Of a DNA stretch of 64,000 bases, positions 15,901-43,943 are shown in pieces. Within the stretch, counting starts at the first letter, position 1. Every line of letters starts with the position of its first letter. The stretch is from Sphagnum compactum. Taxonomy: Eukaryota. The notes below the pieces were generated by a model. That model was not told the origin of the DNA. It searched no databases and was given only the letters and a program-made list of their open reading frames with translations. Position numbers and translations under genes: made by a program. The stretch spans positions 4,216,001 to 4,280,000 of the forward strand of contig OZ234493.1 of NCBI GenBank assembly GCA_965153455.1. The letters run 5' to 3'.

Positions 15901-16983
15901 TCTTGATGAACAGTAGAAGATTACTAGGACCAGATCAGTAGCCTACCAGAACCCGAGAACAAACAAATGACATTACTACAGGACCACTCATGTGCACCTG
16001 TTATCAATGCAATTGCAGAGAAATCTCCACAATAACCACTTGAGGGTAACCTAACAATGAGTGCAGTCATCCACCTTATGAGTTTCTTGCCTACAAAAGT
16101 GTCAGACCATCATCACCTTCATCATCAGGCATAGCAGTGGCCATGAGCTGCTGTAGGTAGCCACTGACTTCATCACCTCAGCTCCCAACAGTAGGTGTAG
16201 ATAAGTTATATAGTAATCCACCAAAAATTTCAGGCAAAGAATTATACAAAACCTGCATCCTGAGTTTCTGTCACATCTCTGGATGCAATGAGAAGACTCA
16301 GGAGTTGGTCACAATGTTGGCTATCTCACTAAAGAGACTCTCATGCACCTGTAAGGTATAACCTTGTGCAAGGGCCGGATACAACCAGAAACTGGAGGTT
16401 TGCTTTTTTGCTTGATGAAAACACCAGACCGTGCATCTTGAAATGCTGGAATGTTGGAATGCACTTGACAAGCAAATGAGTTGCAAAAATGCAGTTCCTG
16501 CAGCTAAGGAAAAAAAGTTGGAGAAACCTAAAAACAGGAGGAGGGGGAGGGATCAAATTTCCAACCTGTAAGGAAAACCCAGTTTGGCCACCACTCTGAA
16601 TGCGGGTTTTGAGAGTGTCCACAGGGTGCAACAGGGTCTCTCCAAATCCACTTGCAAGTGCACCCCATCCAAACTCTCTCCATGCTGTCCCAGCAAAAAA
16701 CGAAAAACCAATCGAAAACAAATCCCACTTGTTCTGTCAGTAGGTTCTAGCAAAACCCTGACAAAGTTAGGGTTAGGGTTTTTCTCTCTCCAATGTCAAA
16801 TCCGAACAAACACACGACGATGACGACGACCCAATTCACAATCCCAGCACAAGAGAAAAAAACTAACAATTCAGAGGAAAAAGGGAAAAAAAATCATCCT
16901 CACTTACAAAAAAACCCGTCTGATCGAGATCCGAGCCTTCGGCTTACTATATTATCCTCCATAGGCTCAGCGATCACCTCCAT
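12973..16983 (-). CDS. Mitochondrial substrate carrier (At1g74240/Mme1/SAM-carrier-like group), ~10 exons
   Basis: Approximate exons: 16983-16908, 16684-16566, 15872-15815, 15486-15337, 15059-15001, 14790-14651, 14440-14394, 14188-14047, 13489-13416, 13253-12973. Motifs WREFGWGALA..GETLLHPVDTLKTRIQ, YVPCEVLKQRMQ, RDVPFAG, TTPMDVLKTRLQVQG and GALPRVLWFVPASA. Confidence 0.9.
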
Positions 16984-22829: not shown

Positions 22830-24533
22830 TCATTTTTTGACTCGACCAGAGTCATGAAAACATTTAAAAGTGAGCTCTAGCATGGAATTGGCCATGGAAC
22901 ATTCAACAAAACGTACATGGTCTCTCCAATCAGCCCCATATAGGCTAATATAGTGACGAGCTGCACCTACACGGTCGTCATAAATGCCCTTCTTGGACAA
23001 AAACCCATGACCATTGGGCCTCATCAACATCAAGCCTGGGATAGTACAGTCTCTAACTTTACTAAACAAAAACCACTGTGCATGCTCTATAAAATCCTGA
23101 ATTAATGGTCGATCCCTAGGTGAATCTAACTCCCAACCATCATATCCAAATTTTGATGGTCCCTTCTCCGCCATCTATCGTGTTGAAGCTTCAGCTGCAA
23201 CTTTGGACCAATCTCGTGCCTCTTGCAGTTGACGCCCCATGAATTTGCCACTCCACCCAATAGCTTGGCGAGCAAAAGTGTATGCACTCCGTACTCAAAC
23301 AGATGGTGCACGCTCATCTCTTCCATGAACCTCTGCTGCAAATGCTGAGATGTAGAAACGACACCAATATAAAAACCTATGCAAGGCACCTGATATAGTA
23401 CCACAAGGCCCACCCAACGCGCTCTCTAAGCTTCCAATCCGGAATAAATCCAACTCACTACAAAGTCGACGTTCATCAATCACCATCTCTGTATGGACAG
23501 TAACTTCAACCCTCATGCCTGAAATGCGACTACTCAATACATCTTCTGTCATTGCTCCCCAACGCTCCATCAAATCTTGTAGCTGGTTCAGCCTAGTACG
23601 CATTGTGCGCATAGTAGCTGGCATGTCATCTAACATCTACTTTTGTATCACAGAAAGAATCTCATGGCATAATACTTTGTAAACTTTGACCTTAGCTATA
23701 TGTGGGTCAATGATTGGTCTGAAGTACAAAGACCCATAGCCTTCCACATTGCACATCTCGTGCACAGTGCCCTCCCTGAACCTCCGCGCCTCGCGTTGCA
23801 CTTCACTAAACTTGTAAAGCTGCAATCCACCTGTAGGAAATTGGACCCCATAATCAAACATATTCTTCTGTGTTGGAACAGAAGAACTCATCTCTGCACG
23901 ATATCATTGTATGAAACGATCAATCATAAGCTCTGCATCTGGAATATCCCACTTCATCCCAAAGAATGAAACCCGACATACTCTGGCACCTAAAGAATGC
24001 AGAGCATCTGTCATGGCCGAAATAGGAACATTAACTTGGTTCCGTGATAGTGTTAAACTATCAAAACTACAAGTCAATGTCATACCAAAAGCCCGACGCA
24101 AAGTGTTCACCAAATCATCCTTGAATGCAGCCCTCTCATGCTCATCATTCCCAGCATACACCTTCACCACTATAGGGTCGGAAATCACATGAAACCAATC
24201 ATGAAATTCTGGAAGATCCTTCACCGACACCTTCCGATTGGCCGGACGAACCATAATCCCAAATAATGCAAGTAAATCCCTGGTAAGCATCATGAAACAA
24301 GCTGCATCGAGATCTATAAAGTCTGGATCATTAATCTCAGGATGCTCTAACAAATTAGTGCATGGTCCACTAAGAAGAGCAAACTGAACTAGTGGAACAC
24401 GTATTGCGCTGGCAAGGGGTGCACGAGGGTATAAACGCCTCAAAGTAGGAGTTGGGCGAATCGGAATAACTGGTGGATGTGTTTATATTACGGTATCATC
24501 TGCAAGACGATTTGTGTATTTAACACGAGGCAT
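22830..24533 (-). pseudogene. Intronless ~568-codon ORF of unknown family, disrupted by 5 in-frame stops; probably encoded by a mobile element
   Basis: ORF-track pieces ending at 24443, 23891, 23636 and 23174 are all in one frame with an ATG at 24533. Stops: TAA 24483-5, TGA 23904-6, TAG 23637-9, TGA 23295-7, TAG 23175-7. No frameshifts; globular-protein-like composition. Confidence 0.8.
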
Positions 24534-24839
24534 AACTTCCACTATTTAGATCTTCTAGATGCCAAATATTTGACTACACCAAATGCCAAATGAACCAAAT
24601 CCAAATATCAAGATATACCAAATACCAAGGCTACCAAAAGCAACACATTTCAATATACTAACTATCAACTACACCAAATAAAAAACATTTCCATACACTA
24701 AGTATCACTTGTACCAAATGAAAAATATCTCCCTATGCCAAATACATAAAGGGAGTGATGGAGTTTGCCACGCTTCCCTCTTCCTAAACCGACAAACCCT
24801 GGCCGCCAATTTGGTAGGTGCCGGAATGCGACTCATTGC

Positions 24840-24940
24840 GGGCGCCGGAACATCGGGTCGGACGGACGGACGGACAGTCGGTCAGGCGCCGGAACGTTGG
24901 GTCGGACGGACGGACGGACAGTCGGTCAGACGGACAGACC
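24840..24940. repeat. GC-rich ~46-bp direct duplication with (GGAC)n tracts
   Basis: ggcgccggaac....gggtcggacggacggacggacagtcggtcag occurs twice. Confidence 0.85.
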
Positions 24941-25514
24941 AGCACCTGATGCTTTGGGGAACTTGCCAGCTCCTCCCTTCCACTGCTGCTACGTATATTT
25001 TCAATCTGGCAAATTGGGGTGAGATCGAACTATTTCGTCATAATGGGGGGGGGGGGGGCGGGGATGAGATGTACTAAAACTAGTTATAAAGCGAAATAAC
25101 CTGGACCCAAATTGAGAATCGAAATGCATGGGAAAAAGTTTTTTCAAGTTAGTACTATTCATTCTTGAAGATCAAGGTGATGTCAAAAATTCCAGTGTTT
25201 TTTTAATAATTTTTTCTTTGGCATTGTGCTTTGTTGTTGATTTTGGAATCCACAAAATTTGCTTTTGGTGGACATTCTCTCTACGCACTACTTTTTGTAC
25301 CTCTCCCTGTAAACAGTGCCCTGATGAATTAAGTTTTTAAAAATTCCAGAATTGTCAGCAGAAGGAATTATTAGATACCATGAAAGATCTGCTCACTGCC
25401 TCGTAAGATCATTATCATTAAACTAGAAAAATTAATTTAATCAATTAATATTTTCAAATGAATTAGTTTAGCCTCCATCTATTGCAACCAAGGGTTAATA
25501 AAAGTAGAAACTTA

Positions 25515-25600: not shown

Positions 25601-28600
25601 TTTTAGAAAAAATGTGAGTGATCTTATGTGATGTAGTTGTTGTTTTAATCATTTTTTTTCAATTACATGAGTCATGAGGTTAATTATAGTTGTTTAAGAC
25701 ATTTTTAGTCCTTTTTTTAATCGTGTTGGACATTATAATTGCATGGGATAAGTCGTGAAAGACATGTTTTGGTATTATGAACACTTTTGATCAATCAATA
25801 AATGTAATTAATTGAAATTAGTGTCATGAATCATTACATTAACTATTAGTTGTTAAAAAGATTCTTAATCATTTCTTAATTGTGTTGAACATTATAGTTG
25901 TATAGGACAAATCATCAAAGACATGTTTTGACATTGTGAACATTTTTGACCAAACAATAAATATAATTTTATTGAAATTAATGTTATCAATCATGAGGTT
26001 ATTACTAGTTGTAACATTTTGTTAACACATAACATGCCACATCATTATCATTAAAAAATGAGACACCATTAATTGCTATTAGGCACAAAAATAAATGATA
26101 TTTTTGAATTCTTAATTTTAGATCATTCAAATTCAAAATAATTACATAATTACATTAAAATTGAATAAGTTGCCATATTTATTATAGTTGTAAAACCATG
26201 ATGTCACATAGCATCATGATGTCCTTTGTAATTATATAATAATTTTTGTAATGAAATAGTTGTAAACATAGTCGAAAAAAACAATAATCATTTTTAAAAC
26301 TAATCATAAAACCCAAGATGTGTTGTTGTCTACAAAAGTTTCAACCTTATACCTTCCTTTATCTCCATGAATAAATTATAACCTTTAACCATTACACCAT
26401 TATACGAATAAATGATATGATTTATTATCACATATTATTATGCACATTTTTCTCCTAACCTACCTAAATATTTATCTTAAATATATTTTTTACTTATGTT
26501 ACTTTGTTATCGTACCTTACATACCTATGTAACCTAAAATACTAATAAGTTACTTTAAACTAATTTTAAGTTAATGTAAGCTACCCAAATCTACATGTAA
26601 GTTACCATAGGTTAGGTTTTTATGTTAATTTAAAAATATTTTAATGTTAATGAAAAATATTTTATGTTATTTTTATATTAATCTATTTTAGGTTATTCCT
26701 AAGTCAATGTAAAATATTTTATATTATTTATAAGTTAATGTATGTTATTATAAATTACTAAATTTATGTGTGGGTTACCATAGGTTAGGTTTCTATAATA
26801 GTCTAAGTGTATTTTAAGTTATGTATAAATTAATGTACATTCTTTTAGGTTATTACATTATTTTCAATTATTCTAAACTATTGGAAGATATTTTAAACTA
26901 TTCAATCTTTGGTATTTTAAATTTTAAATTTTAACCTATTTTTGATTAATTCAATTTTAGTTGTTTTAAATTATTATACCCATGGGTTTTTTCTAGTTAA
27001 TTATACATAACCAAATGATGTATTAAAAATTTAAAATGTTATAATTAAGAGTTGCTTGCGATTTTCATTAATAAAATCAAACATAAACAAAATAAAACAA
27101 TATGAGCAACGACCACAACATGTGCTAATTACGAACGGTCCAAATAAATGATCAGACTAAATTTATTAAGTTATTGTTTTCTTATTACTTTTCCTTTTTC
27201 AAGTTTAAACAACATTAAATCATTGCATTAAACTTTTTAAAATAAAGTTGTTGTTTTGATTGAAATTTAGCAAGGGATTGACTCTAGTAAATGGTGATAA
27301 GGTTTTGAGCATTAATCTACCTACAAGGATGAACCCTATTCAATAGTCTCTTTAATAAGTGATTTTTAAAAATGTGAATAAGAATAATTTACGTTTATGC
27401 CACAATTTAACATTTTTATACCTAGTCACATTCTCATCAATAATAGCTAATGCATTGGTGAGTAGCATTTAAATTTTGTAGTTCATTGTATGCTTAGTTC
27501 ATTTCATTGTTTACATGTTGAAAAGTAAAAGTCGAAAACTTTGTAATCATTGTTAAAAGTGTGTACTTAAATATTGTAAACAAACGAACGCTATAAGTTT
27601 TGACGTCCAAAAAAACATAAAATGAAGAATATATGGTTGTAAAAAATAAACAAGATCAATGTTTGGTCATTGGCTTAATTCACATTTTAAGATTTAACAC
27701 ATTCATTTTCTTCATGTTTTTTCTATGTTGTGTCTTTTACTTATAGAACTCAAATAAATCATGTAGGTTTTAACTTGATGCATCCATAAAGTTTTTGTTG
27801 AAGTTCAAAATAAAAGGTTTTATCATTTACAAAAGAATATATGTGTACATTTTAATGGACTTATTAATATAATGTACATATTATTTCAATCTCATTTCAA
27901 GATTACATTTTCACTTTCAATAAATTATATATTCTATAGGTGTGTTATAATATGTTGATTGTAACACAATTGATGACTAGTCACATATGAAATTGCACAT
28001 ATAAGTCAATTGTACAATAGCTTTACAATGTAATTATTGTGCAACTTGTTCATAAAATCAAATACATTTAATCATGACCATATAATCAATGTGTACATAC
28101 ATTTGTATAAGATCCATTTTACAATTGATGTGTAAATATAATAGAATTCAAATGATATTTGATGTGATTTAAAAAAATAGAAATTATCATATTTTTAGAA
28201 GGCAATTGTAATTTAATTGCATGGTAATTTCATAAAAGTCCATGATTGCAAATTGATGAAGTTTTCGCAAACACAATTTTTCATAATGAAATACATCATG
28301 TGACAAAGCTGATATTTTAATGAACAATGGAAATCTTGAGTAGTGTCATCAATAGAAGAAAACAGAAAAAAGAAGATTTGTTCATAGATTTGAAAATAAA
28401 AAATGAATATCTTCCGATATTTTGTTAATAAACATTCATTATAATAGATTAGGGAGTTAGTTGATTTTGCATTCAAAATGCATTGATTTTTAAAAATGTT
28501 TGTTAAATATTCATCAATGAAAATGATGATTATATTATAATTTCAAAAAGAATTGAATTGAAACTTTAATAATAAACATGCATATTTAAATTTTTATTCA

Positions 28601-29186
28601 TAACCTTACGTAAAGGGAATAATATATCATTTGTTGTCAAAAAAATCACAAGGATAATCAAAAGTTATATGCTACTACATAAGTTTTATAACACCAAATA
28701 AATTATTAAAAATTTATTTTGAATAAGCACTTTCAATGATTTTAGCTCCTAAATTTTTACGACATGAATTATATGCAAATGTAGAAAAAATTGTAAATTT
28801 CAAACTTTATTTTTGTAATTACTCTATTTTATCTCCCATAAAAAAACCTTCCATGAATTAAAACCCAATCTAAACTTTCCAAATAACATAAGGTTTATAT
28901 CACTTAAATTTATTACAAATTGTTAAGCTTCACCAAGTCATTCTATTACTAAACTGTCATTTGTAAAATTGAAAAAATGTTTTTGTGCAACAAATTTTTT
29001 ATGCATTTTAGTTCATCTATATCATAGTTTTTGTATAGTCATTCCCAACATTGTCTTTTACATCCAATTTGAGATCCAAATCTCTGAATTTCAACCCATC
29101 CTGTGGGTGGCAAGTTACAATTGATAAAAGCAGCATTGATGGATAAATGATGGAAATCAATAGGGAAGTGGTAAATGCAGCAATAC

Positions 29187-31860
29187 CTGGCATAAAAATA
29201 TGAGAGCTAAGGGATGGCGGACTGATAAAAGCTGTTGGGAGGAAATGCCCTTCCATTCCAGAAAGACGCCATGTGGCCATGTCACTAGAATGCTCACAGT
29301 GCCTTGCAATTATACCAAGCCAAAATGTGCCACCAGCTGCCCCAACAAAACCCAAGATGGAAAATCATCAGAAATTATATATGAGAAGTGATGCAATGTG
29401 CACTTGCAGGAGTATCTCAGACTGTAAATTTGTAAAAGGGCTACTTATCAATTACTTGATATTCTTACAAGGACTCTGCTGGTGGCCTGGATTTCCCACT
29501 TTCACCACACAAAAATGCATAGGATTGCTAGCAATGAATTCCCTATGCTCATAGAATATGCTAATACACATCTTGAATCACTGAATTGTGTGCCATCTCT
29601 CATTTTTTAACCTTATGGTCATTACACTTCAAATCAGCTTAGTTATGTGTACTCAAAACCAAGAACTGCACAAGATTTTGCACAAGGTAGCTTACCTCCA
29701 TACAACATAGATAACCACTGTCAAGTCCATGCCAGTTTCCCAATCAACAAGGCCGCACAATTTCACCCCAAAAGCCCAAATCAGTCTACTAAATGATCTT
29801 TCTCAAAAACTACAAGATTCATGATTCATGGCATCCAGTTTCTCTCCATTTCCATCTCTTTTGCAAAAGTTTGAAAAGGACCATCAAAATGCTCTTTTAT
29901 TCATTGACAAAACTGGTGCATATTTCTCTGAAGGCTCCTGAAATAGGCACATCAAGATTCAACAACCCAAAGCTGGAGCCTTCACAAACTATTTAAAGAG
30001 AACATTTATCAAGAGGCCCATACCTTCCTGCATCAATTACACACTTTTGGACATGGCCATTCTCATCAAAAAGCTTCACAGATGCACCTCTTGCAGGTGC
30101 ACCCTGATAACAAAAAATTCCCACACAGAATAAGCTTCACCCTGATATCATGACATAAAAATTCCGTGCTAGCTTTCCAGACATCCATTTGAGAGTTAGA
30201 GAGCACCTACTAGGTGAGTTGCTTGACATGAATCCAGGCATTGCTAATTTCCGGGGGATGATAAAATGAAAGAGGCTGAGCACAAAGCTCTACGTGGGAT
30301 CTGAAGGAACCTTCCAGCCACTGAGGATCACATGCCAATAATGCAAATGTATTACAAACTTGATTAAATCCTTCTCTGTTAGACAAGATTCAAACAAATC
30401 TTTGATGCACACTACCATTAGCATCATAACAGTGGTGAGGCAAGTAACGTAATAGTTGAGTGGATCCAAAAATGTTCTATTACTGACCTCAGAAGTTGCT
30501 TTGTGCTGTACATGCTACAAGTCAGTAGAGATCTAGTCATTCCAGAAATATGTCAATAGCTAAAGAAAAGTAATGATTGTTAACCTACTTGAGGAGCTCA
30601 AGACAGCAATCTCCATCAATATCAGCCACTGCCGCACCCCTTCTAAGACCTTTGGGTTCTTTGACATCCCCAATTTCACATTCCACCCAATTACCAGGTC
30701 CGTCCTGCATCCAAATCATCGAATTGTCTATGCCCATCAGCCTTTACATCTTCATGATTGTAGCAACAGCCTCACATCACATCCAGGCTTGCACCTAATC
30801 TTCAGGCTTTCAGTGGAGAATGTCTAAAGCAGATCTCCAATAGGAAGTTGCATCTCCAATATTAACAGAAAAAAAGAAGCGAGGAATCCAGCCATTGAAT
30901 AATCATATTTTCAGCAATCAGAAATCATGGATTGTGTGCCTGCAATATCTGCATGATCTGTTCCCTCACTTCCATAACTAGGTCTTAACATTCCTTTATA
31001 TCATGAGAGACAGGCACCTGTCAGAATAAGCGGTTGTTATCACCAATATTGTTGAAGAAAAGTTCTTCATAAATACCATTGTTGAAGTCAACTGCAATCA
31101 CTGTACAGATTGCAGATGGGTGTGCCCTGTCATGTGGTGCAACATCCTCAAACCCTCCACTATCAGCATCTGAAAAACCTAGTGCTTTTGCACCCCCTAA
31201 TAGACCAGATCCAAAAGGGGCATAAAGCCTGTGAGGACCCTGCCACATGTCCAAGATCAAAGTTTGACTAGGTGGCTGATGCCTCGGGAATTGCTAATTG
31301 GAGCCATGGAAGCACATCTAGATGCACATGAAGTTGTCCCCAACCAGAAACAGAGCCTGTCAAAGAGCATCAGACCAGAGAGAATTTTAAAGAGGTCCTC
31401 ACCTGCCAATTTCCACAAGCTAGACCCAATTCACCATTTCCCCTTACATCCACCACTGCAACTCCTCAGCAATTCTGAAACTGATCCATAAATTGGACAT
31501 GAGTGTCTTAGTTTATTCAGGATTTGCAAGTCAATTGAACCAAAGTGGCAAAACAAAATGGCATCCTTTCGCCATTGAGTGAAGTCCTCATAAGGACTTG
31601 TTATTTTATGAACTCAAAAATTTGCATCACCAGTGATAGCAAACTCATGGAATGAATGTTCAATGCCAGAAAAGGTCCTCACCTATATGTAGAAGCACAC
31701 TCCACATAGCATTCACTCTCGTCACCTTTGTTGATGAACAGAAAGTTTGGTCCTCCCTACCACAGGGCATCAGACAAAATCAGGTCCAGGATGATGGCAG
31801 ACTCCAGAAACAGATGCAAAGGGCTGAACACCTGCAGCCGACCCCTTGTGCCAAGACTTG
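29187..31860 (-). pseudogene. Spliced CRTAC1-like (FG-GAP/VCBS beta-propeller + ASPIC/UnbV) pseudogene, at least 8 exons
   Basis: Exons: ~31756-31683 GGPNFLFINKGD; ~31489-31403 DQFQNC*GVAVVDVRGNGELGLACGNWQ; 31239-31018 GPHRLY...TVIAVDFNNGIYEELFFNNIGDNNRLF*; 30704-30587 IGDVKEPKGLRRGAAVADIDGDCCLELL; 30300-30208 SHVELCAQPLSFY..NAWIHV; 30103-30024 GAPARGASVKL..VIDAG; 29717-29696 SGYLCCME; 29336-29187 VAHFGLV*..VTWPHG. Colinear with CRTAC1 motifs as recalled from memory. Confidence 0.88.
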
Positions 31861-34800
31861 CAGCTGACCACTCAACTCTGCATACCAATGTCTGGGACAC
31901 TCGAGTCCTCAAGAAAGGCATGAATGGAACTGCTCACCTTCTCCATGATTGGCTTCCTCAAAACACCCTGAAATGCCCTCCTCCTCCTACCACTACTACT
32001 GCTGCTCCTCCTCCTCCTACTGATCCTCCTGCAGCTCTTGGTCCAACTTGCCCTTCACATCCACTAGTGTTACCCATCTTGCAACCCTCAAAACCTCTTC
32101 CTTTCCAAGCTTGTGATATGCAAAGGGGATTGCTGCAGTCATGGGGGAAACCCTAAACAACCATCAAGACTCTCAAATAACTTCTCCCTTGCTAACTTAC
32201 CTTCCTCTCATTGCTCTTGATTTTTCATAGGTATAGATTGAACACCTCCTTCTGCACATCAATGATGTGGAGAAAAGCTATGTGATCAAAAACCCTGAGT
32301 ATGAAATGATCATAGATTCCTGCAGCTTCTACATTCTACCATGATCCACCATCATTGGCAACATGAATCCCATACAACTCAAGGCAACATATTCCCTACT
32401 ACAATGTGACCATTGTAACTTCATTTGTTCAGCTCCTGAATGATCTCATCATGGCAAAACTAAACACTTATGATGTCTTCAATACATTGGACAATGAATT
32501 CTTCCTCAAAACATTTAACTACAGCCTCTATGCTCCAATTAAACTTCTAAAATTAGGGCTTGTTCTTCTATAGCAAACTCTGTTCATATGTTGTCTGGCA
32601 ACCATGAATGACAACTGCGATTCCTTAACATAACATCTACCAACATAGAATGCAACCAAAATCACAAACCTAGTTAGCATAACAAGGACAGTGCCAAGAA
32701 TAACATAATGTGTGTGCAAAAGATAGACCCTTTGTTGCAAATGCCTGCCAATTCATCATCAAATGTTAGAAGCTCCATCATTAGTATTTGCCTTGCATGC
32801 ACGTGAACCTACCCATTCGTGTCAATTTTTGATTTTGACACTTTTGTACCTTGACACTTCGCAATCGAAAAGCTAGGCATTGAAAACTAGCAATCATGCG
32901 CATCAGAATGCATGTGCTATGTAGTTCACATAATCTTTGTGCCATAGGAAGAACTAATCTGCAATGGGATGTGTTGTAAACTACAAAATTTTAACTGCAT
33001 GCACAGACACCATATTATGGAAAGATTCTATCTAAGGAAGTTCAAAACCAACATATGGGAGCCTTCCCTATTGTTGAACTTGAGGATGAAGAGAAGGCTG
33101 AACAACAATCCTTTCAAGATCATCCCACTAATGGCAAACCCTTAATAGATGTAACATAGTCGGGGCGGAGAAATCTTTTGAAATGACTATTATGATATCA
33201 TATATTGTTGGTGCAAAACCATGCAAATTTTGAATAGTTGAAACAAAGCCTTGCATTCTAAACAAGACATTATAACACTACATAAACCATTTAGCTATAG
33301 AATTAGGGTACAAAAGGACACCTTGGCAATTTAAAGTAGAGAGAAAGGGTTCAGGAAACTTGACTCATTGTGGGGGACAAGGACATTACGTGGAACACAC
33401 ATTACATGGGAACATGCAAATTCTTGAGCACCAATGAGCTTGGCCTTGGTGAACCATGTTCCTTCAACAAAAAATGCTACCCATAGGACTCATGGAAATT
33501 TCTTCCATTTGTTGAAATCGGATTTGGAATAAACAAACACACCTCCAATTTAAAACAAGGTGTTCTTTTTTTTGAGGCAACTTAAGGTTTTTACTTCACA
33601 AAATTTCTTTTCCAATTGATTGACGATAATTATTGTTGGAACCGATGGATTTTTTTGTTGGTTTAGTACATTTGCGGGAGATTACTCTGATTCATAGAAC
33701 AAACTCTTATTAAGCTTTTGGGGATAATAAGAAAAAATATATAAAATTCATGTGATAGTTTCAGAGTCCTTTTTGTCTGCAAGCAACTAGTATTGAAACA
33801 AGGTTGCCTAAATATATCATGGTGTAGCATCAATGAGAGTGTCATCTACAAAAATCACATGTAAACATGTTCCAAAAGTGTTCTAAAATGAAAAACATTG
33901 CATGAATTAGAATATAGTGAAAACCTTCGGTGTATGCTCATCTTTAGCCCAATTTGGAACCAAGCAAACATATTCAAAGAACCACATGGACCACCCAATG
34001 ATTGTTAAATATTGTGTAAATTGTTTCATGACAACTTGTGTTTCTCCCGAAAATTGAAAATTAAAAATTCGATTGACACAATATTGTGGTTGATCAATGC
34101 ATGCAGGTTTGCAGCCAACTTTTGATGATAGACATAACTTTGGAAGAAAATAAATGAATGCTAATACAGTTTGGTTAAATGATTAGCAAATCTTGTTTTG
34201 ATACAAAAGACCAAAAAACCCAAGCTCGTCTTTTAATTATTGAATAGACTTTGCACCACTTTTTGTTTAGGATGATGATGATGTCAATGTTCAAAGAGAT
34301 TGATTTTGATTGTGACAAGCTCCAAAGGGACAAGAAAAATTGGATTTTCTCTAAAGTGTTGGAAGGATGCATGCCTTACTTACAAGGCACAACTTTCTCA
34401 TAGGCTTAGTCTATGCCTTAAATATTCCAAAGGATCACCAACCTAAACACATAAACATGAATAATGAATGTTGATTGGTCAAAACAACTTTTTAAAAAAA
34501 CTATGTAATTTCTTTTACAAGTAGAATCTTTATTGCCACACCTATTTATTCTTTAGCATCCATAGATAAACAATCGCATTTGACATGAAGCCTTATAATG
34601 GCCTCATCAACAACAATAATTCTTACATTTTAAGGTTTCTCCAACCCACCTTCTTCCATGACTTTCCAATCCAAAATTGTTTATGTAAAACAACTAGAAA
34701 AAAAAGGATGCATGCTTTCAACATCTTTTGCTAAAATAAAATTTCCAAAGATTAGGTTCTTAAGGGAGGTGCACCCATTAAACTGAACATAAACACCAAA

Positions 34801-36319
34801 ACCCAAATTGAAAGAAAGAAATGCACACACCAAGAAACCAATTGCTTGAATGGATTAACAATTTCCTTCAAATACAAATCCGATGCATTACTATTGTGAG
34901 AAGTTCCAAAAGCCGAATTTTTTAATGCACATTTTTACCAATAACAAGTGTTTGGGTGCTTTCACCCCAAATGTTTCAATTAAAACACTACTATAATATG
35001 TCTTCTTGCTCCTCCTCACCATTGTAGAGCTTTGGTTTTGACAACATTTCTATCTGCACACACAACATACAAAATCGCTTGAACATTGTTGATCATAAAA
35101 CATAAACTTGTTTCATAACCTTTGTTGTAAAACATATTGCCAAGCAAAGGCTGATAGAATTCTAATTTCATTAGGTGTGATCTTCAAAACCTTTGCACAT
35201 TTTTTTTCCATTTCTTCTTCCTCGTCTTGTCCTTCACCAATTCCACATTTGCTTGTCCTCCACTCCAGACCATGAGCAATTGCATTGGGGAAAACTTCAT
35301 CATGAATGTTGACAATCAACTCAACTATCATAATGTGCCATCTACCTATAGATTTTGGAGTCATTGATGAACAATTCCTTGAAATCCTTGCATTAAAACC
35401 ATGTAGTACGTGCACATTTAGCTTTTTGTCTTCTTCTTATCTTTAGAGGATTTCCGATGAGACTGACCAAGCAAGGAAGACAACAAACCCTTGAATCTAT
35501 GGTAGCAACATAGTATTTCCTTTGGTTGGCGATTACATGGTTTCATTTTGGAGCTAATCTTCCAAAATATTCGACACAAGAACGACAAAGCAAAAATGGC
35601 AAAATAGAACTGACAAATTGAAAGATTATAGAAGAAAAGACTACTCACAACATTTTTGACGTGCTTGAATTGGAGTTGTTTGCATTTAATGGCTAGACTA
35701 TGATGTTATTTAAATGCCAATTTATTGAAATTAATTTGTCAAAAAAATGCAACTTTCAAATTCTAAAATTTGGTCACATATGTTTTTTAATCATCCCTTG
35801 AAAAGTCCTATTTTGTATAGACTTGTAAATTTGTGTGTATTTCTTACACTATTCATGTAACATTTGTTTGCATATAAACAAGATATAAAATGTTGATATT
35901 TTTTCACCTACTTATCATACTTACATATCAAGTTAATTTGAAATTAAATCAAAGGCAACGAAAGTGATATAATCATCCTTGGATATCAAGATCCTATAAC
36001 ATTACTTTTTGCAAGTTATTTTCATTCTAAACATGTGTGCTTCATGCATTTAACTTTTGAAATTATAAAATAATTTAATTAAATTTAGTTAAAATATTTC
36101 ATTGCACATGATCAGAATTTTTTTCAACTTTTACATCAAAACTATTTTTAAAATCCAAAAAGAAAAATTTAGTTGAATTTACACTATTTTTTTTTTCTAA
36201 AACTTCCTCACTTCTTTTGTCAAGAAAATAATAAAGATTTTTGTTTTAAAAAGACATTGCATGTAATGTTCACCCAAATTATTATGAAAGTAACATTTGC
36301 ATGGCATGATGTTATTTTT

Positions 36320-36765
36320 TATACACTAAAAAATCGGGAGTGTTTTTTTCAAGCAAAATCATGATAATCATTACACTAAAATTGCAATTTGATATTAATG
36401 TAACATGTGGTACAAACTATTATGTGGCACAAATTTAATGTCAAATTGTAATATTGATGTATTATATAGGTCATAATTAACATGACACATTACATTATAC
36501 ATATATGTTCATGAATGAAATCATGAAGTTTATTTGACACATGTCATGAACCCCCTTCTATTGTAAGGATGCAAATGACAATATTCACAAACCTTTCACA
36601 AGCAAAAAGAATTGTCATATGTTGTTACATTAATTTTCTCTACATAGCTCTCTACTTGTGAAGATGTCCGGGCATGTGATTGTAGCCACTTGAGTGCCCT
36701 CGATCATCATATGAGGCTACTTGCCACCAAGGCCACTTGCAAGTGTCCTTAACATAAACAATGAT
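36320..36765 (+). repeat. ~440-bp dispersed repeat; inverted copy at ~41200-41630
   Basis: For example gggagtgtttttttcaagcaaaatcatgat vs atcatgattttgcttcaaaaacactccc, and aaggccacttgcaag vs cttgcaagtggcctt. Colinear in reverse throughout. Confidence 0.85.
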
Positions 36766-38237
36766 ACCTTACCACTTTGGGTGGATTTTAAGATCCTTTG
36801 ATAAACAAAATGGGATTTTAGCCCTTAAACCTAAGCACATTTCCAATATCATTTGGAGCATTAAGCTCATTCATTTGAGTAGCACAAATTGTTTTTTTTA
36901 CTTGCATTTGAGAATTAGGACAAATTATAACAAAATTAAGCCAAAATCTGAATCCAACCACATACACAATAATCTAAAACAAGACATCAAAGTATGCAAG
37001 AAAAATAATCAAATAAAACTTTATTCAAAACATGGAATAATTTGGGGGGAAAAAAAAAACTATGTTCAAACAAAAGATCATACATAAAATTAATGTTGAA
37101 CATATTGAAAATAACGCGGTGAACTAACTCAATTTATACTCATTTGGGGATTTAATTCAAGGAACCTTGTATGGAGCCTCTCATACGGTCCACTATCCAA
37201 GGGACTTTTTAAAAACCTTCCTAACTACACATTACAGATGAAAGTGGACAATGGTGGATAAATTTCATCCATTCTAAATGAAAGATGGACAATGATTCAG
37301 ATTAATCATGTGGATGAACTTCATCCATTACATGGAAAAAATATTCATGGGTGAATTTTGAAATCCATAAGCAGATTTCATTCATGAGCGATCAATTACA
37401 GAAATAAAATACTTCATTTTAAATAATTTACTACCAAAATCCTAATAGATGTTTAATGATGTACATTTGTGTAGGTCATGGGATGTTAATTGTGACATGA
37501 GGTTTCTGATTGACCAACATCTATTTCTCTTAGAAGCATTACTTCATGTCGACGTCGATAATGTCCCGTTTCAACAACATTGAAACGGGCTTCCAAATCT
37601 TGTGTTGCCTTCAACATGTGGGTTTTCCACCATTTGAGCAACATATTATTGATCAACAAGTGATTCAATTTCAAGATTCCCTCTCCAACATATATGAGCC
37701 CTTCTCATTAATGGAGTTACCAAGAATTTGAAGTATGCCATCTACATGAAGCTATGTAAGTATAACATTGTTATCAAACAGGTGTGACAATCCCTTTACA
37801 CAAGAAATGAACCCAACATATTGTCATAGTTTGGACTTACCCTAAGCATATAAGCCAATTAACATTGACCTTGCTAGAGTGCGCCCAACAATGTGTGAAG
37901 ACATACGTGCTTACTAATTGAACTATTATCAAAACTGAAAGCTAATTTATCAAACAAGATTAGGCCGATGGGTAGTCCAATACATACTTCAAACATTGGG
38001 GATTATGTGGCTCAGCGCCATATACTATCCATCCTTTATGGTGTGATGGTGAATGCTAGTTCACTATGGCCGAACATCTTGGGGTTTTTTGAAAACAAGT
38101 TGTTGTGTATTAAAGTTATCCATAAAGTCAGGTGATTAGGGGGTGAGAACGGCCAGTTTTGACATAATAAGGCATCAAATGCTTAACTGGGAATGAAATT
38201 CTACGAAACAAAACAAGTGGGACCCCAACTAGCTTTT

Positions 38238-38495
38238 CCACCAATTTTGGTGGTAAATTGAGTTTCATCCCCTCTTTCATTTTGCCTGAGCGCCTCCGCT
38301 GCAGCAGCTACATATATTTTCACTGCTCCTATCTGTACAACTACTATAATTACTCTCGAACCTTGTGCATTAAATGCTGAGTTTCAGCATTTCATACTGA
38401 GATTTAATAAAAATGTCCTTACTTTGTGAATACCACTGAAAGAGGGGACAGGGGTGAAAGAGAGGGTGACTTTACGGATAACTTTATTGACTCAT
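38238..38495 (+). repeat. Single inverted, diverged copy of the 186-bp array monomer plus the array's unique left flank
   Basis: ggtggtaaattgagtttcatcc...cctgagcgcctcc...tgtacaactactataattactctcgaaccttgtgcatta...cactgaaagagggga...actttacggataact matches the reverse complement of ~41865-42110. Confidence 0.85.
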
Positions 38496-41400
38496 GAAGC
38501 AAAGGTACTCATCAGATCATCATCAACACTCAAACACAATTGCCAGGTCTCCTCAGCCATGACTGGAAATGTGCAGGCTGTGCAGATCAAATCAGATCTC
38601 CTCATACTCATCTCCCCCCCTGTAGGCTGGTTGCTGCTTCTTTACTCTCCAAGCTGGGCACAATCTTGTCATCACCAGTTGTCCCATGAGGAAGGGAAGG
38701 TGGCTAGGCAAGAAACACTTTTTCATTGGGTTCCCATTCCCTAGCTAACCATGATAGTTATTATTAGCTCAGGTTGTGGTTTTCAGTACCTACCTATTAA
38801 CAACCTTCAACTAGTCTTTAGTCCTTACCTATGTGCTAACATGCATGTGCCTATCTATCTACATGCATCTACTTACTTAGTAGCCACCTACCTACCACCC
38901 ACCTACTTACTTAGTTTATCAAATTTTTAAATAATAATTTGTCGATGGAAAAAATTTACAAGACATCTATACAAGATAAAAGTTTCATAAGTTTATTTAA
39001 GTTTGTTCTCAAAGCAAATTGAATTCTTTTATACAAAGGTGAGAATCGGCACATCTACCTTAGTTCTCAAGAATTGTTTGAGGTAATGCTATTGTTGTTA
39101 CATGCTTTCAAGAAGAATACGATTGTGATTGCAAGTGTAAGTTCATCATGTTTGTTATAGCATGAGAGTGTCTCCACCCATGGCACAAAATGGCCCATAT
39201 ATTATATTTCAAATCAAATATTACTATCAAATATTGTGAAACTCACTTTGAGCTTGTAAATATGTCTAGGATATAGTGCCCTTCAAGAGGGCCAATAAAA
39301 GAAAATGATCTTAATTTTTATAAATTCATGTTGGATTTTGTGGGTGTCAAAAGACATTATTAGAAAAATGGTTGGTTTTGGGTCGTTGGTCATCATGAAT
39401 AATCACAATTGACTACTACTATTGATTGGCCCACTTGTAACATTTTAAATGTTCCCTCAATGTATATTGTTCAATATTTATTGCTTATTAATAGGGAAGG
39501 GGCAAACATTTAATATTAAATTTGGATGTGGTGAATAATGATATTGTTCAAAATATAATGCATTTTTGTCCAACATCTATTGTTTATTAGTAGGAGAGAC
39601 AAATATATGACAAAATTTGGATGTGATAAATAAATAGTGATATTGCCAAAATACAATGCATTGTTAAAATTGCTTTTAAAAAGTGCATGTATTTCTATCA
39701 TTTGTATGGATGTAGATGATTAAGTAATTAGGTGAATCCTATTAGATTTTTTGTACACACATAATAAACATTGGTGTGGCATGTGCCATTGAACACATAT
39801 TGTAATATTGAATTGTACACTTGATTGTTTAAAATCGACTTTGTAATAAAATTTTATAATTTTAGAATTTTTGAAGATAAAAATTACTCAAATTTCAGTA
39901 ATTTTCACACCTTAGTTCTAAAAGTTGCAAAATCACCTTCATAAAAGCCTATTCAATGGGGGCTTTCCAAAAACACCAAGAATGCACCCCAATTTCACTA
40001 ACTTTTTTAGTTTTGATTTGATTGAACTCTTAATGATAAATACAGGGTTTAGAAATTTCCAATTTTTTTTTGGTTGCCAAAATGCAGAATTTTTTCCAAA
40101 AAATGCTGCATAGAATATTCAAAATAAAATAATTATTCATTGTTGAAATGTTAAAATTTATATATGAAGAAAGGAAGATAGTTTGTTTGTTTGTCATGTT
40201 GAAATCTCCCAAATCATCCCAAATCGTGCCATGTTGTCTTCCCACACTCTTGGTATTGTTGGAAAGCCCTTGATGAGAATAATGGGTGCATCTCATAATG
40301 TTTCTCATAATGTTTTCACCTATGATGGTGGACGAGTCATTGAATATTGAACTTCTTTTCACTAAAAATTCATTGAAATGAAAACTAGAAATTATAAGGG
40401 AAACGTGAGCGCACTCTTGGGTATTTTTGGAAAGCTCCCAAGTGACTAGGATTTAATGAAGTCGATTAAAAAATTTGTCCATCTGAGATGCGAGAGATAT
40501 TTTAACTTTAAGTATTTTTTTTGTCATTGAAAATTCAATTAAAATTACACAAGATAATTTCGAAAATAAAATTTAGTTGGGTACCCAACTAATTCAGTTA
40601 GGGTTAGGGTTTTTGTTTTTTTTCCTTTGATGGGGAACTTCATGCAACATTTCTTATTTTAAACCGTCGTTGCTGGTTTGAACCAATGTTGTGGAGTTAT
40701 TTGATTTTTAGTCCTGTAAATTTTTCAGAACCAAAGAATCACCCATTCTGGTTTTTTGAGAAAGCAATCAAAATTAAAGAATCACCCGTGATGGGTATTT
40801 CAGAAACGTCAAAGAATCCAGAGTTTTCATAAAAGAACCGACAAAGAACCCGATGGTTAGAAAGGTGGGTCTTGCTTACAAATCGCTTACAATATGGAAG
40901 TTTGTTGAGAATAGGGATCTGAAAAAGCAAGCACACAACAACAATGAATGTAGGCAAGTTGATTGTGTGGTCATTGAACAATTTGTTCAGTGTTTTTTGT
41001 AAAAGTATTCTTTAGACAAGTGTTTAAACTTGATGGCTAGGGTTTAGGGTTTTAGGGTTTAAGGCTTCAGTTGGCAGCTACAAAACAAATGTCTTAAAAA
41101 TCTACCCACAAACTTTGCTGTTGTACCAGAGTTATACATGAAAAGCAGTGTTACAATACTCATTGCAATTTGAGTTTCCGACACAAAAAACTGTTAAGAT
41201 GTCATCCTTTATGTTGAGGATGCTTGCAAGTGGCCTTATACGATGCTCGAGGTTGTTCAAGTGGCTACACTCACATGCCTGAACCATTTTTACAGGTAGA
41301 GTTATACACAGAAAAGTAATGTATCATCATATGACAATTTTTTTTTTTTCTCATAAAGGGTTAATGAAATTGTCATTTGCATCATTACAATAAAAGGGGC

Positions 41401-41974
41401 TTATGACACATGTCAAGTAGACTTTGTAATTTCAATTCATTAATATGTAAAATATGTTGTGTTCATTGTGACATATAGTACATCAATATTACAATTTGAC
41501 TTTAAATTTGTGGCACATATTAGTTTGATATTAGTTTGTAACACATGTTACATGAATATCAAATTGTGATATTAGTGTAATGATCATGATTTTGCTTCAA
41601 AAACACTCCCAATTTTTAAGTGTAAAATTATTGTAATTTTTTGCTTTAGAAACACCCTCAAATTTGAGGTGAAATGGTGGGCAGACCCATTTCATGAAAT
41701 AAGAAATAATTTCAACCTTTCAACATTAAAAAAAACAACCCAAAACATTGTAATGCAGCAAAAGATCTAGAAGCAGAAGAAGAAAAAGAATTAGAGAAAG
41801 AAGAGGCCAAAAACAAAATCTTCATCGATATTTTGGCTTGTGTTGAAACTTGAGATTAGTTACAGAGTTATAATAGAGTTATCCGTAAAGTAACCCTGTC
41901 TTTACCCTATCTTTGGGCCTCCTTTCACCCCCTATCCCCCTCTTTCAGTGATATCTGCAAAGTAAAGACATTGT

Positions 41975-42900
41975 AATGCACAAGGTTCGAGAGTAATTAT
42001 AGTAGTTCTACAATTAGGAGCAGTGAAAATGTAATGTAGCAGCAGTGAAGGCGCTCAGGAAAAAGGAAAGACAGGATGAAACTGAGTTTACCACCGAAAT
42101 GGATGGTTTTCTGAGTTTCATCCCCCGTAAAATGCTAATGTGCTTTTTTGCAGACATTTTAATGCACAAGGTTCGAGAGTAATTATAGTAGTTGTACAAT
42201 TAGGAGCAGTGAAAATGTAATGTAGCAGCAGTGGAGGCGCTCAGGAAAAAGGAAAGACAGGATGAAACTGAGTTTACCACCGAAATGGATGGTTTTCTGA
42301 GTTTCATCCCCCGTTAAAATGCTAGTGTGCTTTTTTGCAGGCATTTTAATGCACAAGGTTCGAGAGTAATTATAGTAGTTGTACAATTAGGAGCAGTGAA
42401 AATGTAATGTAGCAGCAGTGGAGGCGCTCAGGAAAAAGGAAAGACAGGATGAAACTCAATTTACCACCAAAATGGATGGTTTTCTGAGTTTCATCCCCCG
42501 TAAAATGCTAATGTGCTTTTTTGCAGACATTTTAATGCACAAGGTTCGAGAGTAATTATAGTAGTTGTACAATTAGGAGCAGTGAAAATGTATGTAGCAG
42601 CAGTGGAGGCGCTCAGGAAAAAGGAAAGACAGGATGAAACTCAATTTACCACCAAAATTGATGGTTTTCTGAGTTTCATCCCCCGTTAAAATGCTAATGT
42701 GCTTTTTTGCAGACATTTTATTGCACAAGGTTCGAGAGTAATTATAGTAGTTGTACAATTAGGAGCAGTGAAAATGTAATGTAAGCAGCAGTGGAGGCGC
42801 TCAGGAAAAAGGAAAGACAGGGATGAAACTGAGTTTACCACCGAAATGGATGGTTTTCTGAGTTTCATCCCCCGTTAAATGCTATTGTACTTTTTTGCAG
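41975..42900. repeat. Tandem array of five ~186-bp units with an internal hairpin
   Basis: gcacaaggttcgagagtaattatagtagtt recurs at ~41978, 42164, 42351, 42536 and 42723. Units differ by only a few bases. Each has a GGATGAAACT...AGTTTCATCC inverted repeat. Confidence 0.96.
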
Positions 42901-43492
42901 GTGTTTTTTTGAATCTCACCCTGTGTATGACCAAACTCAGGGTTCTGGTGCTGCTCAGTCAGCAAAGCAGAGAAGAAAGAGAAGGAAGAATCCCAAGCCA
43001 ACTGTTGTGTTGCACGACACATTTGACTTACTTCCCATCTTCTCTTTCTCTCTTATAATTTCATTCTTGAGAAGGGTACACAAAATCTTATTATTTCCCT
43101 GCATTGCAGATCTCGTACAGCAAGCAGAGGAAGAACAACAAGAAGCTGCAGCATTGTCTTTTTTAAAAAAATTTAAAAGAAATTTGTTGCACTTTGCAGC
43201 TTGATATATTTTACCTAAACTTTCTGTTTCTAGTGTTGTCTGGTTGTTGGGTTTTTTGTTTTCTTTGGTTTTCCTGCTCTTGGGATATGTCCAGCAATGG
43301 AATAGTAGTGAGAATCAATTGTGACACACAAAGATAACAACGCTTGGTTTGAGAATTTTCCAAAAGGATCTTCGGTCTGTGAAAGATCTTGGAAGAAGAA
43401 GTGAGTCTGCTGCAATCAAAACTTAGTGCACCTCTCATCTCCTTGTTTTCTCCACTGCAGAACTTGTGGTTTGAGGTTGTGGGTTTTTAGGT

Positions 43493-43732: not shown

Positions 43733-43943
43733 GTCTGGTTTTGCAACTGAGCTAGCCAGCTGTTGTGAGGGACGTGATCCGGCATTGTTGTAGAAACTTT
43801 TGCAGATTTTGGGTTTTTTTTCAGTGAAACGGAGGCTGAAGTTTTTTGAAAGAAATTCCGGTCTCTTTGTTATACTAATCTCCCCTCTCTCCTGTTGCTT
43901 CCATTTTCCTACTTCAAATACCCATCAGGAGGTGACCCACGAA

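Follow-up and report, generated by a model that had tools for sequence, protein, structure and literature searches.

The window examined here, a 64,000-nt stretch of the Sphagnum compactum genome, carries exons of a CRTAC1/ASPIC-UnbV-like gene, and it raises the question of whether these exons still encode a protein, how they came to lie there and from where a moss obtained such a gene. Our answer as a whole, a pseudogene derived by capture from a parent gene whose plastid-located product is of bacterial origin, appears to us quite probable, and its parts are held with differing confidence as given below.

The window copy and its decay

A blastn comparison identified positions 29052-31976 (minus strand) as a DNA copy of the 3' half of a CRTAC1/ASPIC-UnbV gene on another chromosome (contig C9, G000:C9:7004579-7010776; 88% identity over 2975 columns). 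An intact paralogue had been predicted by the first-pass annotation, and the C9 gene indeed has 16 exons, encodes 572 aa and is expressed and spliced. In the full alignment the copied segment begins within intron 8 and stops in the 3' UTR; exons 1-8 of the parent are missing and 8 of its 16 exons are present, which we numbered after the parent (E9-E16, Table 1). Earlier, eight GT-AG exons covering the C-terminal two-thirds of the protein had been described, with a start near 31860. We recovered all eight as CRTAC1-like minus-strand exons, with the 22-nt micro-exon among them, but only six of the seven introns are GT-AG, because an 11-base deletion has removed the acceptor of exon 10. The exons span residues 295-572 of 572 and thus the C-terminal half (about 58% of the protein beyond its N-terminal extension), and the first of them opens at 31756, with 31757-31976 representing copied intron 8. 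Since the copy retains its seven introns together with part of intron 8, a retrocopy or processed pseudogene is ruled out. An origin by whole-genome duplication is likewise ruled out, as the flanks are not collinear with the parent locus; the window and the 30 kb round the parent share one 2.9-kb block, with three short matches elsewhere.

Table 1. Copied CRTAC1-like exons and adjoining gene fragments, in positions of the window.
Feature	Position	Strand	Remarks
Exon 9 copy (GGPNFLF...)	31756-31683	-	AG/GT intact
Exon 10 copy	31489-31403	-	acceptor and first 4 bases deleted; CGA to TGA stop at 31468
Exon 11 copy (GPHRLY...FFNNIG...NRLF)	31239-31018	-	carries streptophyte-specific insert; CGA to TGA stop at 31023; DxDxDG motif broken
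Exon 12 copy	30704-30589	-	second DxDxDG motif broken
Exon 13 copy	30300-30207	-	two TAG stops, at 30212 and 30209
Exon 14 copy (GAPARGA...IDAG)	30103-30024	-	ASPIC/UnbV domain begins here
Exon 15 copy, 22-nt micro-exon	29717-29696	-	same sequence as parent
Exon 16 copy	29336-29207	-	CAA to TAA stop at 29312; natural stop covered by 8-base deletion
SnRK1/AMPK beta-subunit gene, 5' piece with ATG	31973-32209	-	84-87% to L011-L013; Pfam AMPK1_CBM in donor L011
N-myristoyltransferase gene, 3' piece	32208-32575	+	82-84% to L010; Pfam NMT, NMT_C
LPAT-type acyltransferase gene piece with introns	32596-34047	-	82% over 1478 columns to L009; Pfam Acyltransf_C
NERD-domain gene, short piece	34056-34255	-	donor C13; 99-base part matches C7 too
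Putative P5-type ATPase gene, intron-region piece	34284-34619	-	77%; donors C6, C1
PPR gene, 5' piece	34653-35226 and 35432-35576	-	donor C8, 71-74%; Pfam PPR in donor

The stops noticed in the first reading amount to five in-frame codons (Table 1), the copy has neither a complete reading frame nor its full set of splice sites and motifs, and the copied DxDxDG (calcium-type) motifs are broken in both cases. Differences to the parent affect 72 of 825 exon sites versus 192 of 1913 intron sites, and the coding comparison gave dN 0.075 and dS 0.125 (ratio 0.60, bootstrap 0.36-1.06, both branches pooled). The window branch carries 39 of the 43 amino-acid differences between copy and parent. C>T or G>A changes were found at 30 of 62 parental CpG bases versus 67 of 1172 other C/G positions, and window-specific residues are common to the database models of three other Sphagnum labels (11 of 13, 18 of 23 and 19 of 23 scored). 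The copy would thus have decayed under methylation, mostly earlier than the split of the present Sphagnum species. We are nearly certain that it is a non-coding, 5'-truncated pseudogene of the moss CRTAC1-like gene, and the database protein models derived from it (P0001-P0004) are annotation artefacts. When nine single exon frames were scanned against Pfam, one weak FG-GAP_3 match under the cut-off and one chance match were returned, and family membership was therefore taken from a full-length relative, as described below.

The surrounding mosaic, its assembly and its transcription

What had been overlooked in the first reading is the context of the copy, which closes one end of a 6.5-kb mosaic made of seven fragments of unrelated, unlinked genes and reaching up to about 35576. 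The pieces abut directly, by microhomology or short filler and without element sequence in between; the kinase-beta piece meets the CRTAC piece at the 4-base microhomology GCAT. Six of the seven pieces are oriented alike, the N-myristoyltransferase piece being the sole exception (two-sided about 0.13 by hand count, non-significant alone). The region 32000-32600 had also been considered as a KDZ transposase remnant, which was rejected, the sequence being the N-myristoyltransferase fragment. Spliced reads of the LPAT-type donor leave out 33500-33924. The donor of 34284-34619 is presumably a P5-type ATPase gene, a label we assigned from its peptide; Pfam gave no match. Going from the CRTAC piece towards the PPR piece, divergence climbs (K2P 0.10 to 0.27-0.32; rho 0.93, p 0.007). 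With the C7 locus as donor of the NERD piece this gradient is less pronounced (rho 0.75, p 0.066), and with transversions only it amounts to rho 0.75 (p 0.066) and 0.68 (p 0.11); which loci truly donated some of the pieces is uncertain.

The mosaic was probably made by a gene-capturing DNA transposon, and among such elements we tentatively name a Helitron, an identification that falls somewhat short of an even chance. The CRTAC gene would have been copied as DNA from mid-intron 8 onward and attached through a short microhomology to the last of six chained fragments of unlinked genes, the Helitron probably having added pieces at one end and lost its termini since. The row of several intron-containing fragments in mostly one orientation is as expected of such an element. 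Searches of both ends and of the inner junctions showed neither a Helitron hairpin with CTRR nor terminal inverted repeats (TIR) or a target duplication. Of the features of Helitron ends (a 5' TC, a 3' hairpin with CTRR, insertion between an A and a T, and related ends at other loci), the closest candidate is a 6-bp hairpin, weak and AT-rich, that precedes CTAA at 28460/28452; elsewhere in the genome nothing matches the segment 28290-29060. Of 430 inverted pairs, the 25 longest included no TIR with target-site duplication as in Pack-MULE or Pack-CACTA elements, and the repeats flanking the mosaic on the left and on the right belong to different families. The repeat at 35979-36320 resembles an old LTR piece. 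The model P0004 suggests that the copy in a relative extends further into the 3' flank of the parent, as the S. jensenii model does, and the original end of the mosaic was therefore probably deleted here.

Microhomology joints suit template-switch repair as well as read-through. Repeated template switching during double-strand-break repair, leaving filler DNA at one site without any transposon, would account for the direct joints, for the lack of termini and for the finding that genome searches showed no second copy of the mosaic. Seven donors, a main orientation and a divergence gradient, however, point to stepwise growth at one end, and the probable deletion of the original end speaks against this explanation as well; we regard it as unlikely compared with capture by a transposon.

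The RNA-seq check proposed earlier yielded junction reads at all seven parent introns. In the poly(A) run X22, of which about 12% was read, 586 reads aligned, 18 of them with at least 99% identity. At the listed exon sites the non-window letter was carried by 28 of 29, 39 of 40, 40 of 41, 16 of 16, 13 of 15 and 14 of 16 reads, and at sites 31073-31076 it is the C9 letter (checked by eye in the alignment). The window letter was found in 1-3 reads per site. Micro-exon 15 is spliced on both sides (31 and 19 reads), and these reads probably stem mostly from the parent. An alternative acceptor at 30320 was used by 2 reads. Two metatranscriptomes (runs X15 and X17) contain contigs nearer to the window than to the parent, one of them spliced at a new acceptor and one spanning the kinase-beta/N-myristoyltransferase joint, with little or no depth on their flanks. 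An in-frame kinase-beta::CRTAC chimera was rejected: translation from the kinase-beta start would enter intron 8 sequence and terminate at 31960; no read or contig among those listed spans the kinase-beta/CRTAC joint. That the mosaic acts on its parent genes as a long non-coding RNA or a source of small RNAs could be read from these contigs and from its retention in several Sphagnum lineages. Its exons and introns, however, diverge near-neutrally, window-type reads make up a few percent in the same-species run, and slow-evolving relatives can share a mosaic without selection, so that we consider a regulatory role highly improbable and regard the window copy as transcribed only at a trickle level.

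The parent protein, its location and its origin

For the characterization of the family we used the intact Sphagnum protein P0005, to which the C9 model is 96% identical. Membership in the CRTAC1/ASPIC-UnbV family, as proposed from the exons, is borne out by its Pfam domains, its PDB match and its fold match. Pfam recognized FG-GAP repeats (FG-GAP_3 97.5 bits, cut-off 26.9; FG-GAP 44.1 bits, cut-off 22.1) and UnbV_ASPIC (PF07593) at residues 489-556 (49.8 bits, cut-off 23.4), and residues 96-560 match mouse CRTAC1 (PDB 9ETN, E 1.2e-100) as the sole PDB sequence match. Another FG-GAP family, the alternative left by the first reading, is disfavoured by Foldseek, which placed 9ETN first (E 5e-50, next E 7e-9) with a TM of 0.79 and 40% identity versus 13% or less for the others listed. 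The AlphaFold model has a pLDDT of 85.9, with residues 1-74 disordered. CRTAC1 binds potassium in addition to calcium, and the four DxDxDG-type motifs of the C9 protein are putative calcium sites. Judging from the model, the protein is most likely a metal-stabilised FG-GAP beta-propeller with an ASPIC/UnbV domain and, by analogy with the family, most likely a non-enzymatic protein-binding scaffold. The animal-type features (signal peptide, EGF-like domain, long FFNN loop) are absent from the plant form in alignment and Pfam. The short FFNNIG loop had been taken as a prokaryotic marker, which does not hold, as Emiliania and Prasinoderma share it; the long loop occurs in five animal rows only of the 40-row alignment.

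The parent protein is probably located in the plastid, most likely in the chloroplast stroma with a putative transit peptide at its N-terminus. The N-termini of five plant forms abound in Ser/Thr and Lys/Arg and contain little Asp/Glu, and many bacterial relatives start right at MF, the first residues of the domain. In the 2016 moss chloroplast proteome (PMC5095126, supplement 6) the entry Pp1s19_232V6 'Crtac1' is listed as Plastid. This entry is presumably the gene of the Physcomitrium protein P0008.

Orthologues were found in Klebsormidium, Spirogloea, mosses and ferns, in agreement with the long nuclear residence suggested by the introns. No seed-plant protein was named among the best 120 + 120 matches listed, as anticipated, nor was any from lycophytes, liverworts, hornworts, red algae, glaucophytes or chlorophytes. 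The presence of the family in a land plant is less of a surprise than first thought: the Physcomitrium protein A1XF86 already goes under the name 'Cartilage acidic protein 2', and a moss Crtac1 appears in the 2016 proteome. We found no publication on the origin or function of the Physcomitrium protein, although plant genes may be mentioned in Redruello 2010, in the paper on the CRTAC1 structure and in two surveys of plant HGT; the terms 'cartilage', 'ASPIC' and 'FG-GAP' are absent from the main text and one supplement of Yue et al. 2012 (PMC3493653). The family is hence not new to plants, and we did not find its history described in the literature.

On balance we favour a bacterial origin of the plant gene, separate from animal CRTAC1. 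Most likely the gene passed from a bacterium to streptophyte algae, acquired introns, a transit peptide and a private loop there, and later disappeared from seed plants. In the 36-row tree, on which the topology tests were carried out, streptophytes group with bacteria apart from animals, Prasinoderma and Emiliania (branch 96/96), and FastTree gives the same separation (support 0.949). Identity of the plant form is 55-61% to bacteria versus 40-45% to animals. If CRTAC1 were instead an ancestral eukaryotic gene, passed down vertically to animals, algae and streptophytes, with a change of targeting to the plastid in streptophytes, homologues in animals, Emiliania, Prasinoderma and other algae would be expected and are indeed present; a single clade of all eukaryotic rows costs 3.15 log-likelihood units (p 0.30, not rejected), and the backbone of the 70-row tree is undecided. 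The best tree and the identities nevertheless oppose this view, a clade of streptophytes and Prasinoderma (Viridiplantae monophyly) is rejected (p 0.004) and the distribution is very patchy, which makes vertical descent rather unlikely.

Endosymbiotic transfer, one of the routes suggested at the outset, is not favoured over transfer from another bacterium. It implies a gene of the plastid ancestor, with losses in red algae, in chlorophytes and in seed plants, and it would suit the probable plastid location, the top prokaryotic matches by score (Thermostichus-type cyanobacteria, 59%) and the grouping of streptophytes with Thermostichus, which is not rejected (p 0.066). In the best tree, however, the plant clade is not sister to cyanobacteria, its nearest row being an armatimonad (86/81); a grouping with all six cyanobacterial-type rows is rejected (p 0.007, partly since those rows are not one clade themselves), the best 80 genome loci comprise 13 from cyanobacteria versus 38 from Chloroflexota, and the absence of red algae, glaucophytes and chlorophytes from the listed matches weighs in the same direction. 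We therefore judge a plastid-ancestor origin as improbable as vertical descent.

With bacterial transfer as the preferred reading, a fuller history can be put forward tentatively, with slightly less than even confidence. A bacterium placed near Chloroflexota, Armatimonadota and cyanobacteria in the tree, and not the plastid ancestor, would have passed a cytosolic CRTAC to streptophyte algae, independently of animals and other algae. Duplication would have produced a form of secreted type, which is seen in Zygnematophyceae, and a chloroplast form with the private surface loop; the latter would have persisted in mosses and ferns but not in seed plants. Bacterial gene neighbourhoods (80 loci) contained nuo genes in 10, an ABC transporter in 7 and an enolase-type epimerase in 7 cases, lineage-bound only. 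Because nuoA-C lie directly downstream in 10 of 38 Chloroflexota loci, we considered that chloroplast CRTAC may serve the complex I-like NDH machinery, a proposal to which we give little credence.

Significance and comparison with known systems

By itself the locus is of small weight, another captured and decayed gene piece, and a warning about the database models P0001-P0004. If the divergence gradient holds, it preserves on a small scale how gene capture proceeded step by step in a moss. If our reading of the parent is true, the plant gene is an undescribed transferred chloroplast gene, and bacterially derived chloroplast CRTAC would be an added entry among the transfers that shaped the land-plant lineage. 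The molecular role of CRTAC1 in animals is poorly understood and the plant form represents the conserved core; a single-gene knock-out in Physcomitrium could then probe the ancestral intracellular role of the fold.

Read-through capture (PMC4778049) and sequential capture (PMC4224331) have been described for Helitrons carrying gene fragments. The mosaic resembles such elements in its row of intron-containing pieces from unlinked genes in mostly one orientation and in its low-level chimeric or aberrantly spliced RNA; it differs in that a TC start, hairpin and CTRR end were not found, in being single-copy and in its joints, which are microhomologies and not old 3' ends. With Pack-MULEs and Pack-CACTA elements it shares captured intron-containing fragments of several genes and methylation-type decay, and it differs from them in having no terminal inverted repeats or target duplication.

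The closest counterpart of the C9 gene is its Physcomitrium orthologue A1XF86 (P0008; 71% identity, 99/96 with C9 in the tree), known, together with Pp1s19_232V6, as a database name and a table row alone. Human CRTAC1 carries a signal peptide, an EGF-like domain and a glycosylated tail, according to PMC10477339, and the plant form is without all three. In comparison with animal CRTAC1 it has a transit-peptide-like N-terminus and an insert of 16-18 residues after GPHRL. Common to the plant form and the CRTAC1 family (PDB 9ETN; PF07593, PF13517, PF01839) is the core of FG-GAP propeller and ASPIC/UnbV domain.

The intact parent gene and its decayed copy

A search of the 382-Mb genome with P0005, an intact Sphagnum protein, found 21 matches. 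They fall in three places: contig C9, the window (G000:C1:4216001-4280000) and, as a small fragment, C1:3489114. The C9 gene, modelled by hand from the alignments, comprises 16 exons with GT-AG borders at 15/15 introns, encodes 572 residues without internal stop and is 96% identical to P0005; it is the intact paralogue that the first-pass annotation had expected. The window copy aligns, introns and all, to the 3' half of this parent gene (88% identity, 2975 columns); within 30 kb of the parent, the two loci have no collinear flanks in common. The eight exons initially recognized correspond to parent exons 9-16, the micro-exon is real, and the proteins closest to exon 11 of the copy are Sphagnum models (82-93%); together with the P0002 residues given below, this identifies the genome as that of a peat moss. 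In a third, older CRTAC fragment (G000:C1:3488958-3489206, L007:4958-5206; 67-80% identity), part of exon 9 is fused to the last stretch of intron 10 and a portion of exon 11; Copia-type reverse-transcriptase remnants lie nearby.

The window copy is a pseudogene. Without exons 1-8 it lacks a start and the N-terminal extension, and its propeller is incomplete. The several stops claimed earlier amount to five in-frame stops, accompanied by two deletions, one of 11 bases that takes in the acceptor of exon 10 and one of 8 bases across the natural stop, and 2/2 DxDxDG-type motifs within the copied part are broken. Copy and parent differ at 8.7% of aligned bases in exons and 10.0% in introns. After exclusion of 5 gapped and 5 stop codons, 268 codons could be compared; dN was 0.075 and dS 0.125, a ratio of 0.60 (bootstrap 0.36-1.06) that mixes the constrained parent branch with the copy branch; with P0005 as outgroup, 39 of 43 amino-acid differences fall on the copy branch. 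CpG bases were changed in 30/62 cases, compared with 67/1172 for other C/G, an excess that is the presumptive mark of a methylated duplicate. Window-specific residues, scored solely over the exons that each database model covers, recur in S. troendelagicum (11/13), S. balticum (18/23) and S. jensenii (19/23), as well as in P0002 (source label Sphagnum compactum, 23/23); the duplication and most of the subsequent decay therefore took place before the three other Sphagnum labels split. P0001-P0004, from four Sphagnum labels, model the pseudogene with its stops skipped, and in the Adiantum model P0007 a retrotransposon gag is fused to CRTAC; all five look like annotation artefacts.

Four of 23 listed RNA runs were aligned to 28500-35500 at 88% likeness to admit parent reads. 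From X22, a poly(A) run with the same species label (~12% read), 586 reads aligned, 18 of them at ≥99% likeness. Exon sites carried a non-window letter in 28/29, 39/40, 40/41, 16/16, 13/15 and 14/16 reads (counts from 40 rows, with 350 further rows beyond these), and at 31073-31076 it is the C9 letter, as checked by eye against the alignment. Spliced reads, the proposed RNA-seq check, were present at all seven parent introns (10, 12, 17, 2, 25, 19 and 31) and are mostly ascribed to the parent. The C9 letters and junction reads show expression of the parent and splicing in line with its model, with copy output of at most a few percent. The copy is not fully silent, the window letter appearing in 1-3 reads per site, and 2 reads use an alternative acceptor at 30320. 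Metatranscriptomes X15 and X17 contained contigs that differ little from the window; one is spliced at 30320 and shows 3 differences in exon 12, against 14 in the parent. The depth of both runs on the flanks is almost zero, which argues against DNA carry-over, although divergence in another species may also be the cause.

Family membership, origin and location of the plant protein

P0005 carries Pfam FG-GAP and ASPIC/UnbV domains, and mouse CRTAC1 is its only PDB sequence match and best fold match, which firmly places the plant protein in the CRTAC family, as first assigned. In a protein search with P0005, 4926 of 8000 scored candidates passed; the best 12 of these (≥599 bits) are plant-type (Sphagnum, Physcomitrium, Ceratodon, Ceratopteris, Adiantum, Pteridium, Klebsormidium, two Spirogloea-format rows and three unnamed transcripts), and bacteria follow from 557 bits downward. 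The supposed novelty in land plants falls for mosses, which are already in databases, Physcomitrium A1XF86 even under the name 'Cartilage acidic protein 2'. No row named as seed plant, lycophyte, liverwort or hornwort occurs among the best 120 matches to P0005 and the best 120 of a short-protein search, most of them unnamed. Of the unnamed plant-type rows, P0009, P0010 and P0350 group with ferns and P0014 branches at the base of the clade, so the family is likely to be absent from seed plants. Of 258 parsed proteins (462 in the full set), 14 have a 16-18 residue insert after GPHRL, and all 14 are plant-type. The short FFNNIG loop, previously regarded as the prokaryotic form, is common to bacteria, Emiliania and Prasinoderma and is thus no marker of prokaryotic origin.

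For phylogeny, 338 proteins were reduced to 252 by a coverage filter, and 127 plus C9 entered FastTree; a quick IQ-TREE of 70 rows left the backbone open, and a careful tree used 36 rows with long branches removed. In the latter, streptophytes, including unnamed P0014 and P0095, form one clade (98/94). P0130, P0137 and P0095 (Spirogloea, a 'Mesen1' model and one unnamed) make up a second Zygnematophyceae-type paralogue branch, in which the plant insert is missing in 2/3 and N-termini are signal-peptide-like in 2/3, both named rows. Streptophytes share a 96/96 branch with bacterial and unnamed short rows, away from animals, Prasinoderma and Emiliania, the nearest row being an armatimonad (86/81). 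Transfer from a bacterium to streptophyte algae would be the best reading of this topology, and one we moderately favour. Among groups chosen for testing after earlier trees had been seen, streptophytes plus Prasinoderma (p 0.004) and streptophytes with all six cyanobacterial-type rows (p 0.007) were rejected; streptophytes with the Thermostichus group (p 0.066) and a single clade of all eukaryotic rows (p 0.30) were not. We consider endosymbiotic transfer and vertical descent each unlikely. Of the routes named in the first-pass annotation, horizontal transfer is the one favoured over endosymbiotic transfer and ancient retention. A full-text literature search returned no paper on plant CRTAC origin, plastid location or loss, though unexamined papers may cover these.

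Five moss and fern N-termini start with MA and combine a high content of Ser/Thr and Lys/Arg with few acidic residues; the moss and fern extensions stop just before MF, where many bacterial relatives begin, and the P0005 N-terminus is disordered in the structure model. Such features are typical of chloroplast transit peptides, and the plant N-terminus is read as a predicted transit peptide placed in front of a bacterial-type cytosolic protein. In a moss chloroplast proteome (PMC5095126), Pp1s19_232V6 ('Crtac1; cartilage acidic protein 1') is listed under the label Plastid; this entry may correspond to P0008 (A1XF86). By analogy with the family, we would expect the parent protein to be a metal-stabilised, non-catalytic propeller binding other proteins. 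Among the 80 best genome matches, nuoA-C lie directly downstream of the CRTAC gene on the same strand in 10/38 Chloroflexota loci (L077, L090, L091, L092, L098, L104, L105, L106, L131, L139), in 7/10 with nuoD also downstream; this weakly hints at complex I-like machinery and may represent one inherited neighbourhood.

The mosaic and its surroundings

The CRTAC piece forms the end of a mosaic, with six other pieces adjoining upward in the window. Six of the seven are on the minus strand, and donors lie on at least six other contigs; the donor of the sixth piece is presumably a P5-type ATPase gene. Outside the mosaic, the inverted-repeat pair looks like an old Mutator-type element. The TG...CA-like ends of the dispersed repeat, together with a motif after one copy that we take to resemble a tRNA-Met primer site, make it probably an LTR remnant. 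The broken reading frames at 22830-25045 gave no Pfam matches; within them, the near-identical copy of 24500-25045 elsewhere on C1 suggests a young mobile element of unassigned type.

Features of the window, with K2P distance of mosaic pieces to their best donor
Feature	Position	Strand	K2P or remark
CRTAC piece	29052-31976	-	0.10
SnRK1 beta-subunit gene piece	31973-32209	-	0.14
N-myristoyltransferase piece	32208-32575	+	0.15-0.18
LPAT-type acyltransferase piece	32596-34047	-	0.17
NERD-domain gene piece	34056-34255	-	0.24
Putative P5-type ATPase piece	34284-34619	-	0.22
PPR gene piece	34653-35576	-	0.27-0.32
Mitochondrial carrier	9714-11204	+	one long open frame
Second mitochondrial carrier	12973-16736	-	
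Repeat	24500-25045		95%-identical copy at C1:15645080
Three AT-rich non-coding repeat families in series	25602-26329, 26335-26978, 27606-28292		
Old dispersed repeat	35979-36320		other copies ~370 bases
Inverted-repeat pair	36319-36778, 41188-41627		~450 bases, 75%, enclosing 4.4 kb
Inverted copy of 186-base repeat	38238-38486		3.6 kb upstream of tandem array
Five tandem copies of 186-base high-copy repeat	41966-42950		
Lactate dehydrogenase	43794-45859	+	
Myb/SANT (trihelix-like) frames	46566-49492	-	
CRM1 exportin exon	62720-63154	-	

Distance to the donor rises along the mosaic (rho 0.93, exact p 0.007), also without the NERD piece (rho 0.94, p 0.017); it gave rho 0.75 (p 0.066) with an alternative NERD donor and rho 0.75 or 0.68 (p 0.066, 0.11) for transversions alone. 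This gradient is compatible with growth of the mosaic at one end. Searches around the mosaic revealed neither Helitron ends nor TIRs nor a target duplication. P0004 stays collinear with the parent 3' flank past the break point of the window copy, so the original terminus may have been deleted here. The window locus adds one more case to a familiar category, that of gene fragments captured and then left to decay, and we infer a gene-capturing transposon, perhaps a Helitron, as its vehicle. The divergence gradient matches the one-end growth of the read-through model of Helitron capture (PMC4778049; PMC4224331), whereas the joints differ in consisting of microhomology or short filler, without old CTRR ends.
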